From a candidate division FCPU426 bacterium (GTDB lineage: Bacteria; Oederibacteriota; Muellerivitia; Muellerivitales; Muellerivitaceae): a stretch of DNA of 64,000 bases. Location of the stretch: positions 480,001 through 544,000 of the forward strand of contig CAVRAL010000001.1 in assembly GCA_963719085.1 (NCBI GenBank). The letters are read 5' to 3'. The position numbers were made by a program. Numbering within the stretch: the stretch's first letter is position 1; each line of letters starts with the position of its first letter. Below are positions 24,001-64,000 of the stretch, piece by piece.

Positions 24001-27000
24001 GCCGGACGATTCGCCACCGCCGAACCCTCCTCCTTTCATATCCCCAAGGACAAGCTTTTAAGGGAAGAAAGCCGGTTAACCGCCCGGGTGGGGACCGTGA
24101 TGGGGTTGGAAGAAGCCCTCAACCAGCAGGTTTCCCTGTTTCAAAAATCGCTGAAACTCCACACGGTCTCGATTTTTTTATTGACCACCCTGGAAGAAAA
24201 AAAGGTTTTTCGCCTGCGGGCCTCCTCGACCGTTTCCGAATCCCTGGCGCCGGACGTGACCCTTTTGCCGGGTGAAACCCTGGTGGGGTTGGCGGCCAAA
24301 GAAGGAAAAAGGGTTTTGCTGAATGAGATGTCCCCGGAAAGCGCGAAAGCCCTTCCTTATTACCTGAAATACAACCCGATCGGTTCCTTTTTAGTTCAAC
24401 CCCTCCACGTTAAAAATGTTTTGGGAGTGGAGGAAAATCAAGATTTGGCGGGGCTGGCGGTTTTGGATAGTTTGACCGAGAAGTTTTTTGGCGCCCATGA
24501 ATTGGAATTGGTGGACGGTTTTTGCGCCAATATTGAGGAGGCCATCGAGCATACGAAGGCCCTTCATTTTTCCCAGACCAAGAGCCGAAACTTGCATGCC
24601 TTGTACGAGGTCTCCAAGGCCTTTTCCACTTTGCTGGATTTTAAAAAAGTGCTTCAAACGAGTTTAAAAACCGCCACGGATATTTTTCCCTGCGACTCGG
24701 CTTATATCGCGATGGCCAAGGGAGATGGGAAAAGTTTCGAGGTTTTAGCTTGGTGGGGGCCTTCGTGGGCCGCGGCCCAGCCGGTCCAATTGGACCCGGA
24801 GTTGGCCACTTGGATGCTGGAAAATAAAAAGCCCATCCGCTATACCCGCGGCCAAAAAGACCGGAACCTGGCCGCCTTCACGCGGCGCGACGGCATGCTG
24901 GGGTCGATCCAGTCGTTTCTCATGGTTCCTCTGATGGCGGGCCAGGATATCTTGGGCGTTATCCGGCTCAACAGCAACCAACAGGATACCTATCAGGAAT
25001 ATGACCAAGATGTCTTAAGCACGCTGGCGAACCAATCCGCCATGGCGATTCAAAACGCCCTTAACGTGGAACAAATCCACAATATGGCCACGAAGGACGG
25101 ATTGACCGGCATTTATAACCACCGTTATTTCCAAGAAAAGCTGGAGGAAGAAATCGCGAAGGCCGACCGCTATAACAAGGACCTGAGCTTTTTACTTTTG
25201 GACGTGGATCATTTTAAAAAATTCAATGATACCTACGGCCATCAAGAAGGGGACAAGGTGCTGCGAACCGTGGCCGAGATCGTTCAAGCGACGATCCGGC
25301 AGAAGGCCGATCTATTGGCCCGTTACGGGGGCGAGGAATTCGCCGTGATCCTGCCCGAAACCGACATCAACTCGGCTGCGGATTTGGCCGAGCGGATCCG
25401 CCGTAATATCGCCGATCATGTGTTTGAGGCCGAGGGGAATAAGTCCTATCGGGTTACGGTTTCCATCGGGGTTTCGGCTTATCCTTTTGACGCAAGGGAA
25501 AAAAGTAAACTGATCCAGGCCGCGGACGCGGGACTCTATGAGTCCAAGCATCTGGGCCGCAATCGGGTCACCCTCTTTCAAGCGATCAAAAGAGTCCCTG
25601 ATTTAAATCAGGGAAAATGATGGTTTAGACCGGCGAACACCAGTTGTGGTGGTTTTATTTAAGGGGCCACTATATGTGGTTGTTTTTATCTAAAATCCGC
25701 CCTCCCTTGCTTTTTCAAAGCGCTTCCGCTTTCCAGTTTTTGATGGGCGCTTACAATGAGCCTGTCACCATCCTCAAAGTCTATTATCAACCTTAGTTCG
25801 GGAATCCAAATGATCCTGACGATCCGGGAAATCGCCTCAAAATTGCACGTGCATGAACAGACTTTAAGAAACTGGGAGAAATCCGGTTTGTTGAAGATTT
25901 CCAGAATCGGGGGAAATCGAACCCGCATTTATGACGCGAGCGATCTATCCCGGTGTAAAAAGATTTTAAGCTTTTCTGAAAAGGGAATTAATTTAAGGGG
26001 AATCAAGGCTCTTTTGGGGCGTGAAAAGCAAAATCGTAATAAATTTTTAGCGGCTCCAGGCAAAGATTAAAACAAAATTTTTGTCCGCGGGAGCGAAGCG
26101 GCGTCGATGTGGAAAAAGGCGAGAAACCCTGGAAAATTAAGGCTTTTTTAACCATTCTTTGTTGACAGGAAAAAAAGCTTTGTCATAATGACACTAATTT
26201 TTCGCCTCTGACGAAAATCCGTACATCTACGCCCCTCAACGCCGCCGGTGCCGCACGTTAAGTCGCCCAGTATGATTCAAATTCAATTGGGGAGTTTTTG
26301 TGGTCAACCCTGTCAGCGCCATCGATCCTATGACGGTTTTGCAAAAAAGCATGGATGCTTTAGCCATCCAGCATGAAGTGATCGCCAATAATTTGGCCAA
26401 CATCGATACCCCCAATTTTAAACGCTCGGAAGTTTCGTTTCAGGACAAGTTGAAAAACATTTTGACCCAGGACGGGCCGTCGGCCTTGTGGAGGACCAAC
26501 GTCAAACATTTTCCGATCACCCAACCGGTTTCCCTGGATGATTTCAAACCCACCATCACCACGATCACGGATACGATCGGGAGAAATGACGGGAACAATG
26601 TGGACTTGGAAATGGAATCGGCGAAATTGGCCGAGAACAATCTTCTCTATAACAGTTTGGCGGATGTCACCGGCCGCTATATCGCGAACTTGAAGCACGC
26701 GATCACCGAAGGGAAACAATAATCCATGGGCGCGCTTTCGGGCTTTTCATCCTCTTTCGCCATCACGGCCTCGGCACTAACGGCTGAGAAGCTCCGTATG
26801 GATGTCATTTCCAACAACATCGCCAACGCGGATACGACCCGAACAATTGAGGGCGGGCCTTATATCCGGGAACGCGTGGTTTTCGCTCCCCGCATTGACG
26901 CAACCCAGACCTTCGCTCCCATGCTGGCCAATATGACGGCGGAGGGCATGCCGATTGGAGTCCGCGTCACGGGGATCATCAAGGATCCGAGCCCGCCGCG

Positions 27001-63000: not shown

Positions 63001-64000
63001 TCGAGCGTCACCCAGGTGACGGCGTTCGACGCCATTGACATCCAATTTTCCGAAACCATCCAGAAAGGGCCTTCGGCCGATCAAAATCAAGTCCAGCAAT
63101 CCTTGGCGGGTTTGGCGACGGCTTTCCAACAGATGGTGGGTTTCCTGCTGTCCAATCCGGACGCTTCCGCCGATCAGGTCCAAAGCCAGATTGTGTCGGC
63201 GACTCAAGGGGCCATCACGCCCGCCGCGGCCAAGGCTTTGGTGGCCGCGGTGCAAGGATTTTTGCAATCCTTACCGCCGAGCCAAAAGAGCCTGCTTTCA
63301 GGCGAAGCCGCCCAGCAAAACCTTTTTAACCAGCTCTTTCAAGGGTTGGCGGCCGGCGTGGCGGCGGCGGGGAACAATAATAAGTCCAACCCGGGTTCGG
63401 ATGATTCGAGTGTTTCTGAAAACTTCAATTTGCAGATGGCTTTTGGAACCTCATCCTTGATTCAAACCGCCAATAGCGGCGCCTCGAGTTCAACCACCCA
63501 ATCGGGCTCGCAATTCTTTGGCGCGGATGTTTCCATGTCCGAGATCAACGACAACGAGATTCAAACTTCCATCACCAACGCGGTTTTGGACGCGGCGCCG
63601 TTAAGCGGCGGCTTGGCGGACTTGACGCAGCAAGAAGGACAACTTTTAACCAACCAGGCTCCACAAGGTTCGGGGGCGTCGCCGGTGACCGGACAGGACT
63701 TGGCGAATCTTTTAAACCAAGCGCAAGCCGGACAAGTGAGTTTAACTTCGTCCAATCAAAGCCAGCCGGCGCTTTCTTCGGATCAGCTCAATAAGATCGC
63801 CGCCATTGATTTCAACCAGATATTCAATTTGATGACTCAGAACGCCCAAAATCAAAATGCCGCCTTGACGCAGCCGGTGGCCCAAGCCGATACCTTGCAG
63901 GCGCCCACGCCGGGCTTGCCGTCGGTTTTAGGCTCATCCAATAGCCCGGCCATTCAAACGAGCATCTTGTCCACGCCGACCGTGGTGACCCTTCAGAACT

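Follow-up and report, generated by a model that had tools for sequence, protein, structure and literature searches.

The closest gene set to the one considered here is that of the canonical flagellum of the Bacillota type, which includes FliY, FapA, YvyF, a TIGR02530 protein and FlhF/FlhG. Buchnera is not known to have MotAB, and loss of the stators and of steering is typical of the Buchnera-type organelle. That organelle comprises a basal body and a hook with FlgK but no filament, and its 26 retained basal-body genes apparently form a secretion system (PMC13468123). A remnant flagellar type III secretion system (T3SS) in Lysobacter has flagellar export genes without flagellin (PMC9927559; also the accessible part of PMC7688988), with flgK, motAB, fliG, fliM, flgB and fliE lost as well (PMC9927559). 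Salmonella and E. coli polyhook, flgL and fliC mutants have a rotating hook without a filament, as non-swimming laboratory defects (PMC9100566). In surveys, flagellin is treated as a near-perfect marker of flagellar motility, and the use of half a motor has been questioned (accessible part of bioRxiv 2024.12.05.626484).

We analysed a window of 64,000 nucleotides (positions 480,001 to 544,000 of contig CAVRAL010000001.1, here C1) from a candidate division FCPU426 bacterium, following up a first-pass annotation of a flagellar operon without filament genes. The best reading is a flagellar system that lacks the filament module and terminates at the hook. Common to this system and the canonical flagellum are the export gate and ATPase (FlhAB, FliPQR, FliHIJ), rotor, switch, MotAB stators, torque residues, rod, L and P rings, hook cap (FlgD), hook (FlgE), ruler (FliK), FlgK, FlgN and FliA/FlgM. 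It differs in having no FlgL, flagellin, FliD, FliS, FliW or CsrA, in a FliK about twice as long, in FliD-like modules and a tail on FlgK, and in predicted FliA sites before hook genes and extra flgE copies. Unlike Buchnera, these bacteria, whose genomes measure 2-5 Mb, keep stators, switch, FliA/FlgM and chemotaxis genes, and the genes lost with flagellin in Lysobacter are all present and conserved. The system is also unlike an injectisome (non-flagellar T3SS), as rod, hook, FlgH, FlgI and MotAB are present with one FlhA; no search was aimed at needle, secretin or translocon families. Whereas the laboratory mutants are defects, the state described here is old, occurs in many families, is under selection and includes an intact FliK; rotation is predicted from the genes. 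The absence of filament genes is already visible in one row of a published table, without discussion there. An ORF scan of window positions 19812-64000 (44 ORFs) placed the genes from flgB through flgK, and the 5' part of fliK, where they had been annotated (Table 1). The second flgE, the FliA sites, the FlgK modules and at least four genomes with two systems are additions.

Table 1. Features of the flagellar locus and of the second flgE (window positions, or contig positions where marked C1).
Feature	Position	Strand	Remark
flgB, flgC, fliE, fliF, fliG, fliH, fliI, fliJ	26300..33104	+	proximal rod, MS ring, rotor, export ATPase; Pfam
motA, motB, fliL	33123..35277	+	stator
fliM, fliY-type fliN	35301..37289	+	switch
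fliO, fliP, fliQ, fliR, flhB, flhA	37317..43076	+	export gate
flhF, flhG, PilZ gene, 136-aa ORF, fliA, fapA	43073..48480	+	
fliA	46011-46850	+	above TIGR02479 cut-off
195-aa ORF, 216-aa ORF, 99-aa FlhB C-terminal-like gene	48608..50147	+	
two PorV/PorQ-like outer-membrane barrel genes	50217..53970	+	Ig/fn3 tails
flgF, flgG, flgA, flgH, flgI, flgJ, yvyF	54002..59367	+	distal rod, P and L rings
FliA-type promoter TCAAGTTT-N11-GTCGTTAG	59427..59453	+	predicted; 5' of flgM
flgM, flgN	59481..60262	+	
flgK, 821 aa	60272..62737	+	FlgK fold; no flgL 3'
two inserted FlgK modules (residues about 448-542, 601-715)	61613..62416	+	hhalign
fliK start, 874-aa hook ruler	62758..64000 (gene end C1:545382)	+	Flg_hook E 4e-16
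FliA-type promoter 5' of flgD	C1:545423-545449	+	predicted; beyond window
flgD	C1:545475-545885	+	beyond window
TIGR02530 gene	C1:545934-546344	+	beyond window
operon flgE, 622 aa	C1:546450-548318	+	beyond window
second, stand-alone flgE, 622 aa	C1:1238398-1240266	minus	51% identical

The sequences show intact, conserved parts throughout, from export gate, rotor, stators and switch to rod, rings, hook cap, hook, ruler and FlgK. The C-terminal segment of FliG is nearly invariant (13 filament-less loci), MotA has ARREGLLGLE in 15/15 such loci, and the MotB plug Asp, noted as intact in the first pass, was found in 14 of 15, the remaining one having been missed by the pattern. FliM retains an N-terminal LSDGEVSALL peptide, which we take to sit where the CheY-binding peptide is. 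The NPTH cleavage motif of FlhB is intact, and there is a single copy of FlhA in this genome. In all genes compared, dN is far below dS. The residues of the motor hardly vary and the compared genes are under purifying selection, so the missing genes do not reflect decay, and a lineage-wide loss of the filament module is supported. This agrees with the earlier view of the state as normal for the lineage, and it is shared across families.

Genes for flagellin and its partners were not identified. The genome is 99.08% complete in 5 contigs, and searches with Pfam/TIGR and phylum-specific profiles bore out the reported absence of fliC, flgL, fliD, fliS and fliW. No matches were obtained to Flagellin_N or Flagellin_C at E<=10, to FliS at E<=1, or to FliD_N, FlgL (TIGR02550) and FliW at E<=0.1. 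Phylum-derived profiles (fliC from 16 sequences, fliD 9, fliS 9, fliW 10, flgL 10) and csrA (one sequence), run against six frames, gave at best E 0.26. Flagellin_N matched 13/99 phylum genomes, the same raw count as before; the match in G003, where a short contig carries a chimeric ORF, was excluded, which leaves 12, identical to the 12 genomes with FliD_C above cut-off. At the cut-off of the present analysis FlgK was found in 66 of the 99, and 54 of these lack flagellin (68 and 56 in the first pass, which had rightly placed most FlgK genomes in this class). They include genomes in 1, 3 and 5 contigs, the single-contig one being G074. In the order to which this bacterium belongs, 26/32 genomes have FlgK and 0/32 flagellin. 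At the FlgK-FlgL junction FlgK is present and FlgL absent: flgL adjoins 0/23 long flgK versus 10/10 short flgK, and on unbinned contigs with a visible flank it lies beside 0/2 distinct long FlgK versus 14/14 others.

These data bear on two alternatives. The locus could be decaying, or its gaps could stem from incomplete assemblies, as might be suggested by the fragmented operon flgE of G048 and G055, and by G046, which has a motor and two stand-alone flgE without flgK or fliK matches. This is extremely unlikely and already contradicted: all genes tested are under purifying selection, one branch of FlhA spans eight families, and flgL is missing on the same contig and in the single-contig genome. 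Alternatively, a filament may be built from a flagellin diverged past detection, or from an unrelated protein docking on the altered FlgK. The FlgK termini are altered in this order, as is FlgN, whose C-terminal Tyr is missing here but kept by other FlgN of the phylum; in addition, many relatives are incomplete bins, and FliA/FlgM are retained. We consider such a filament very unlikely, as flagellin, FlgL, FliD, FliS and FliW vanish jointly while other parts are easily detected, the lineage-specific profiles are negative, and no flagellin-like ORF is among the 22 with the best FliA motif (by starts and lengths, with Pfam for three). Weak FliD_C matches in 10 family members proved to be a TPR sigma-54 activator in the five loci read.

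The assignment of the long FlgK (g485) by its fold was upheld (Foldseek E 4.8e-16 to Salmonella FlgK). Its terminal segments are diverged, its C-terminal tail is rich in S, T and P, and against named genomes it has one match only, within the genus. The two inserted modules are repeats of each other, of the Flagellin_IN type, and are homologous to the two outer domains of the ordinary FliD of the phylum (hhalign 99.0% and 98.1%), so that a likeness first described as weak is now strong. Comparisons with FliC, FlgL and short FlgK gave under 0.5% (hhalign), and no solved FliD was matched by sequence. Modules of this type are also seen in a FlgK with ordinary ends and in numerous repeat proteins, so that their presence is no sure sign of a cap or an adhesin; for the same reason, the insert is weakened as proof of a FlgK-FliD fusion. 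The enlargement of FlgK and FlgE is less exceptional than was claimed. FlgK of 695-828 aa also occur in Pseudomonadota-dominated clusters, and filament-less FlgE range from 496 to 873 aa and are not always much enlarged. Protein size is weak evidence, since ordinary flagella also have long FlgK and FlgE. The gene order flgN-flgK-fliK holds for this order and G042, whereas elsewhere flgK is last in the operon.

FliA and FlgM are present, and the predicted late regulon, which comprises flgM, flgD, the second flgE and surface proteins but no flagellin, points to hook genes. An unbiased motif search of 22 upstream regions recovered TAAGATTT-N11-GCCGTTAG, clear in 13/22 (information 12.8 versus 9.1-9.5 when shuffled). 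A predicted site precedes flgM in 10/10 further loci from 9 genomes of the order. The best predicted FliA-type promoter of the genome is that of the stand-alone flgE, which ranks first of 2445 ORFs with a motif trained without its own genus. In other families a site is predicted 5' of fliK-flgD-flgE in 7/13 loci, versus 0/26 control regions and 0/4 ordinary systems, although the matrix for these families recovered just 1/16 ordinary fliC upstream regions and its silence there is weak. The motif also precedes genes for signal-peptide, T/P-rich surface proteins (7/30 loci read) and is absent 5' of 6/6 chemoreceptor genes in this genome. The hook reading is best supported by the second flgE together with the predicted promoters before it and flgD. 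Bacillus and Treponema have FliA-type promoters inside hook operons, and Campylobacter and Helicobacter (epsilonproteobacteria) have two flgE; unlike the present system, all form flagellin filaments.

A protein of 145 aa without a family is encoded in 14/32 genomes of the order, with the motif in 12/12 loci read (scores 9.6-20.7), and further small ORFs have a predicted FliA site 5'. At about half the length of phylum flagellins, and with this distribution, the protein was rejected as a hidden filament. By its features it weakly resembles a flagellum-secreted Campylobacter family (0.88, no more than a lead), and it is a candidate for a non-structural protein exported through the gate. Export of such small FliA-controlled proteins by what is mainly a secretion organelle, similar to that of Buchnera and with the motor secondary, is unlikely. 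Ordinary flagella also secrete small proteins, and secretion needs none of the stators, torque residues, FliL and FliM peptide that are strongly conserved here. Non-flagellated Lysobacter lost motAB, fliG and fliM together with the filament (PMC9927559).

At least two flgE are present in 27/32 genomes of the order (among the 150 matches listed), often in tandem, and the second copy in this genome is full-length and outside the operon. Operon and stand-alone copies are largely separate in a quick tree, which indicates an old duplication. In most other families flgE is single-copy. All 32 filament-less FlgE aligned share an insertion close to the end of D2, and the 2 ordinary ones lack it. Both FlgE keep an FxxxF/I motif, which presumably lies at the place of the gate signal of early substrates. 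The C-domain of FliK and the FlhB cleavage site are retained, and FliK lengths of 669-1079 aa predict hooks of 108-190 nm at 0.2 nm per residue (PMC6126814), a scale derived from Salmonella and measured up to 785 aa only. The long hook-class appendage proposed in place of a filament stands in outline as hook-class, but the ruler predicts only about 150 nm. By a rough hydrodynamic estimate, a hook of 108-190 nm would yield 0.3-1.4 um/s versus 28 um/s for a normal filament.

A longer polymer is conceivable if hook protein has replaced flagellin. FliA would then have exchanged flagellin and FliD for FlgE and FlgD as its targets, driving bulk production of this new pair after the checkpoint, and a micrometre FlgE helix, capped by FlgK, would act as a slow propeller in liquid or on a surface, with FlgE paralogues behaving like multiple flagellins. 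The old flgE duplication, the motif before the stand-alone flgE and before fliK-flgD-flgE in other families, and the shared D2 insertion all fit. FlgE overproduction gives longer hooks (bioRxiv 2020.03.25.007062), and a hook helix of 1-3 um could reach 2-10 um/s. Nevertheless, we regard this as somewhat unlikely. E. coli polyhook mutants are non-swimming (PMC9100566), intact FliK and the FlhB switch should halt growth, and FlgE with the FxxxF/I motif should not pass after the switch. The single flgE of most other families and the hook-operon promoters of Bacillus and Treponema also count against it. There is no codon constraint of the kind seen in flagellin (within one genome pair, dS is 1.35 for filament-less flgE and 0.37 for ordinary fliC), and in this genome flgE codon scores are unremarkable and no higher than those of fliK, though genome bias is weak and the reference set held some wrong-frame ORFs.

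Four genomes have the filament-less system beside an ordinary flagellum, with two full FlhA, and G035 has both in pieces; a second ordinary system in relatives had been reported for three. In trees without an outgroup, the two kinds of FlhA are separated by one long branch, the filament-less kind forming one branch across eight families. Coexistence and the long branch suggest different jobs. In two genomes with both systems, dN of the filament-less motA (0.014) and fliF (0.018) is low, as is that of the ordinary motA (0.033), whereas filament-less FlgE (0.287) and FlgK (0.258) evolve 3-5 times faster than their ordinary counterparts (0.054 and 0.082), as exposed parts do. A well-preserved motor in a whole group that has lost the filament suggests that a flagellar motor can be retained for work besides ordinary swimming.

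Very probably, then, the system that terminates at the hook is a rotating motor with a FlgE appendage and a FlgK tip, without flagellin; that the hook is also about 0.1-0.2 um long and works at a surface has roughly even chances. The motor would turn and could be switched. FlgE (at least two paralogues in the order), with FlgD as its cap, would polymerise to about 110-190 nm, the length at which the long FliK trips FlhB. FlgK would take the place of FlgD and, with nothing being added afterwards, stay as a permanent tip, exposing its two FliD-like modules at the end. Export of FlgM would free FliA to boost hook genes and surface proteins rather than flagellin. The tip may grip a particle or polymer, and the motor may sense load or turn or shift the attached cell. 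Work at a surface is likeliest because so short a rotating stub yields little open-water thrust. On the other hand, a longer polymer would better explain why flgD and the extra flgE have predicted FliA promoters of their own, and FlhF/FlhG, the CheC/CheD chemotaxis cluster and the FliM peptide are hallmarks of steered motility.

Over the long term, many families keep a conserved, switchable motor although they lack every filament gene, and in some it coexists with a normal flagellum. This leaves two options, a second job for the motor (rotation without a propeller) or substitution of flagellin by hook protein. Both bear on the origin of the filament and on the reading of motility from genomes. 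If FlgE does form the filament, these bacteria would be a living example of a flagellum that moves the cell with nothing but a rod/hook-class polymer. The finding offers a predicted length, a subunit list and a regulon, and the genomes with both systems are internal controls.

Several che clusters are present, as reported, but need not serve the flagellar motor alone, since the genome has pilus ATPases, one of which adjoins the CheC/CheD cluster. Rfam gave no match in the window or the flgE leader, and the stability of that leader on its own does not exceed that of shuffled sequences (z -1.35). Glycosyltransferases flanking the stand-alone flgE, as found with flagellins, were sought among 22 neighbours and none was present; the neighbours include MsrA, SET, an ECF sigma factor and secreted proteins. 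In other families, a second FliK-like gene of 825-880 aa lies at the place of the 216-aa ORF, which has no family match and no BLAST match to the longer form, and the two are equivalent by position only. The second PorV/PorQ-like gene is directly 5' of flgF in 17/19 loci.

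We identified a single co-directional flagellar operon in the window, running from flgB into the beginning of fliK. G000, the genome under study (99.08% complete, 5 contigs), yielded no profile matches to Flagellin_N or Flagellin_C at E<=10, to FliS at E<=1, or to FliD_N, FlgL and FliW at E<=0.1; the control genome G093, of the same phylum, was positive for FliD_N, FlgL and FliW with the same profiles. Profiles derived from the phylum's ordinary fliC, flgL, fliD, fliS and fliW and from one csrA gave a best E of 0.26 on a six-frame translation of G000, and for comparison a short-FlgK profile detects the long FlgK at E 1.7e-40. 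These searches took in flagellin, FlgL, FliD, FliS, FliW and csrA, with FlaG and FliT outside their scope. It is improbable that a filament protein is present and escaped them.

Among 99 genomes of the phylum, FlgK was found in 66, FlhA in 69, the MotB plug in 73 and FliK in 65. Flagellin_N matches occur in 13, or 12 after dropping G003, whose match is a chimeric ORF and was removed; these 12 are exactly the genomes with FliD_C above cut-off. FlgK without flagellin occurs in 54 of the 66 FlgK-bearing genomes (36/46 among the 60 best genomes), including G074 (1 contig), G094 (3) and G054 (5), counts that represent one or a few old events because kin are not independent. In a same-contig test, which is independent of binning, flgL is next after flgK at 10/10 loci with a short FlgK (463-472 aa) and follows it at 0/23 with a long FlgK (697-837 aa). 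On unbinned metagenome contigs, flgL accompanies 0/2 distinct long FlgK having both inserts and 14/14 other FlgK with room to see it, some near-identical. The first-pass annotation had described a motor and hook operon without filament genes as the state of the lineage; the profile searches, phylum counts and flgL-flgK adjacency make that case more strongly, although at our cut-off its figures (56 genomes with FlgK and no flagellin; 68 with FlgK) come out lower. It also placed a second canonical system in three genomes with two FlhA; such systems exist, but four genomes have two full FlhA, and G035 has FlhA in 3 pieces. An FlhA tree (24 sequences, no outgroup) separates 19 filament-less from 5 ordinary sequences by one fully supported branch.

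Between G000 and a same-genus relative, 15 distal genes have dN of 0.03-0.32 and dS of at least 0.9. G093 and G092 each carry both systems, and between them dN is 0.014 for filament-less motA, 0.018 for fliF and 0.033 for ordinary motA, while it is higher for filament-less than for ordinary FlgE (0.287 versus 0.054) and FlgK (0.258 versus 0.082). The FliG C-terminus, the MotA ARREG segment, the N-terminal FliM peptide (LS..E..ALL type) and the MotB plug Asp, recorded earlier as intact, are near-invariant across families; we take their roles to be established. To judge from these sequences, the filament-less motor is maintained in working order, and decay or artefact is highly improbable. G000 encodes four CheA clusters and six chemoreceptors, but also six pilus-type ATPases, one adjoining its CheC/CheD cluster.

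The most probable structure is a motor that rotates and can be switched, bearing an extended FlgE hook with FlgK at its tip. Every part of the system is flagellar. A mainly secretory role is unlikely: the filament-less systems of Buchnera (PMC13468123) and Lysobacter (PMC9927559) are described as secretion remnants, whereas that of G000 keeps its motor. A preprint on ancestral flagellar genes lists FCPU426 among lineages with ~35% gene loss, uncommented in the accessible text (PMC13277936). One Goldbacteria row of its Table S1 has the same gene pattern as the genomes here, with FlgK, FlgE, MotAB, FliA, FlgM, two FliK and two FlhB, and empty cells for FliC, FlgL, FliD, FliS, FliW, CsrA and FlaG; from this agreement, Goldbacteria/FCPU426 is the probable phylum of the genomes studied. 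Goldbacteria have been described as binding and degrading cellulose and as having flagellar genes, in a text whose accessible part is silent on flagellin (PMC7031533). Our literature search, with most subscription journals outside it, found no published description of a motor that this group has conserved without a filament.

The FlgE predicted structure is a hook fold. The protein measures 609-678 aa in the order, 496-873 aa in the remaining filament-less families and 407-413 aa in ordinary systems. An FlgE search found a full-length stand-alone paralogue, 51% identical to the operon FlgE. Among the best 150 of 372 matches (222 being weaker), at least 27 of the order's 32 genomes carry more than one flgE, several of them as tandem copies. 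G003 and G037 have tandem pairs as well; they belong to other families, most of which have a single flgE. A quick tree of 55 FlgE places 8/9 operon copies in one group and 15/22 stand-alone copies in another; the rest are mixed within one genus or isolated. The operon flgE is fragmented in two genomes with stand-alone copies, and in G046 (99% complete) flhA, motB and two stand-alone flgE are present while flgK and fliK searches gave no match; both may reflect sequencing error or real change. The operon flgE leader has a hairpin with internal loop and then a second hairpin, kept across the order and still discernible in G003 and G037, with no Rfam match and folding no better than shuffles.

An unbiased search of 22 regions upstream of stand-alone flgE gave the motif TAAGATTT-N11-GCCGTTAG (12.8 bits versus 9.1-9.5 in shuffles), clear in 13/22 at 37-65 nt, which resembles the sigma-28 consensus. 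A matrix built from 11 sites of genera other than that of G000 ranks stand-alone flgE 1st and flgD tenth among 2445 ORFs of G000, and also recovers a site at flgM, a textbook FliA target. At loci outside training, flgM scores 17-21 in 10/10 (9 genomes), flgD at least 13 in 11/12 and operon flgE in 4/11 (two loci from the same genome), and no region upstream of flgB, fliF, motA, flgF, flgG, flgA, flgH, flgI, flgJ, flgN, flgK or fliK reaches 13. A strict FliA pattern, partly derived from the scored sites, has 50 matches in 25/32 genomes versus 2 for the reversed pattern; the 30 read lie before flgM (13), flgD (5), signal-peptide T/P-rich proteins (7) and small ORFs (5). None of the six chemoreceptor genes of G000 has a FliA-type site upstream. 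Other families have TAAAGTTT-N11-T(A/C)CGATAT before flgM and a similar site before fliK-flgD-flgE in 7/13 loci, omitting 4 further loci without a fliK ORF adjoining flgD, versus 0/26 control regions and 0/4 ordinary systems, the last contrast being weak because this matrix found only 1/16 ordinary fliC promoters. FliA-type internal promoters in hook operons occur in Bacillus and Treponema. The accessible part of PMC4526659 holds no confirmation of these. The predicted sites suggest that FliA is directed at hook genes.

FliK has 862-1079 aa in the order and 634-851 in other filament-less families, versus 386-476 in ordinary systems, in keeping with the enlargement first reported. On the ruler scale of 0.2 nm per residue, measured only to 785 aa and 135 nm (PMC6126814), the G000 hook would be ~150 nm long. 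With native hook supercoil geometry (pitch 129 nm, diameter 33 nm; bioRxiv 748384) and other parameters assumed generously, we estimate 0.3-1.4 um/s for such a hook, near Brownian motion, 2-10 um/s for a 1-3 um hook and 28 um/s for a normal filament. We see an even chance that the appendage is sub-micrometre and at work on surfaces. A micrometre-scale hook-protein propeller is less likely: FlgE overproduction lengthens hooks (bioRxiv 2020.03.25.007062) and FliA control would act likewise, but E. coli polyhook mutants do not swim (PMC9100566), and dS of 1.35 for filament-less flgE versus 0.37 for ordinary fliC in the same genome pair argues against bulk FlgE production.

The FlgK predicted structure matches Salmonella FlgK (E 4.8e-16; FliD and flagellin 0.2 or worse), confirming the first assignment of g485. 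The protein carries two inserts that repeat one another and match both outer domains of ordinary FliD from the phylum (hhalign 99.0% and 98.1%, 9/9 FliD), a likeness previously called weak; FliC, FlgL and short FlgK stay at <0.5%. Their module is of Flagellin_IN type (1479 representatives match); the 47 proteins examined, picked among the top 150 because they had several repeats or were about the size of FliD, comprise 11 with FliD domains, 3 FlgK, and others with repeats only or no family. The inserts suggest a cap role, short of proof because the module is widespread. Many proteins of 600-2000 aa from elsewhere (representatives P0027, P0030, P0032, P0033 and others) are made up of 5-13 such repeats, and no end domains of flagellin, FliD or FlgK were detected in them. 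Long FlgK proteins have a short S/T-rich tail, and both terminal segments are diverged in the order. A C-terminal FlgN Tyr is absent in 14/15 genomes of the order and displaced in the fifteenth, and kept in 14/15 other filament-less and 8/8 ordinary FlgN; we infer that it is equivalent to Salmonella Tyr-122, which docks FlgN on FlhA (PMC8527033). Off-operon long flgK genes in two genomes are perhaps an alternative tip cassette.

Locations of the flagellar operon and associated features
Feature	Location	Remark
Large ORFs (738, 757, 1372, 1251 aa)	window 258-13190	window start
GAF-GGDEF gene	window 23467-25620	just 5' of flgB
Flagellar operon	window 26300-64000	flgB to start of fliK
PilZ gene	window 45191-45610	inside operon
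Region of 216-aa ORF	window 49196-50147	alone in place of second FliK-like gene
2 PorV/PorQ-like barrel genes	window 50217-53970	within operon
flgM site	window 59427-59453	FliA-type
fliK (874 aa), flgD, TIGR02530 gene, flgE (622 aa)	past window end	same operon, in that order
PilZ gene	G000 C1:289179-289529	strong FliA-type site
Stand-alone flgE	C1:1238398-1240266	
Large FliA-preceded signal-peptide proteins	G000 C4:87710-101118, C4:510964, C1:1244469; L085, L090, L096-L098	
145-aa protein	G000 C4:562471-562908 (-); L176:7472-7909	
Operon flgE leader hairpins	L001:6377-6430	
Second FliK-like gene (825-880 aa)	L104, L106, L108, L110, L114	other families; then short FlhB-like gene
FliA-preceded ORF, ~110 aa	L181:1436-1867 (G045)	
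Second long flgK	G051:C7 (L052)	away from main operon; flgD close by
Long flgK	G052:C20	away from main operon; only copy found; flgE 10 kb away
Fragmented operon flgE	G048:C7 (L060); G055:C15	

FliA-type sites also lie at large proteins that have a signal peptide, T/P-rich linkers and a C-terminal domain of FlgD_ig or type IX-like kind, one family often just upstream of stand-alone flgE, and 23-43 nt upstream of the second FliK-like gene in 3/5 loci. The 1251-aa ORF has a signal-peptide-like beginning and a borderline site. The ~110-aa ORF is similar to rod and hook proteins only in their two terminal helices. A Ser/Gly/Leu-rich 145-aa protein without family, in 14/32 genomes of the order, has the motif ~20 nt upstream (12 loci read) and is a candidate flagellum-exported protein. 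The two PilZ genes, one with its FliA-type site, and the GAF-GGDEF gene point to c-di-GMP control. An fn3-bearing PorV/PorQ-like gene, with ~14 paralogues in the genome, is immediately upstream of flgF in 17/19 loci across families, and these barrels are perhaps an outer-membrane part of the filament-less motor.
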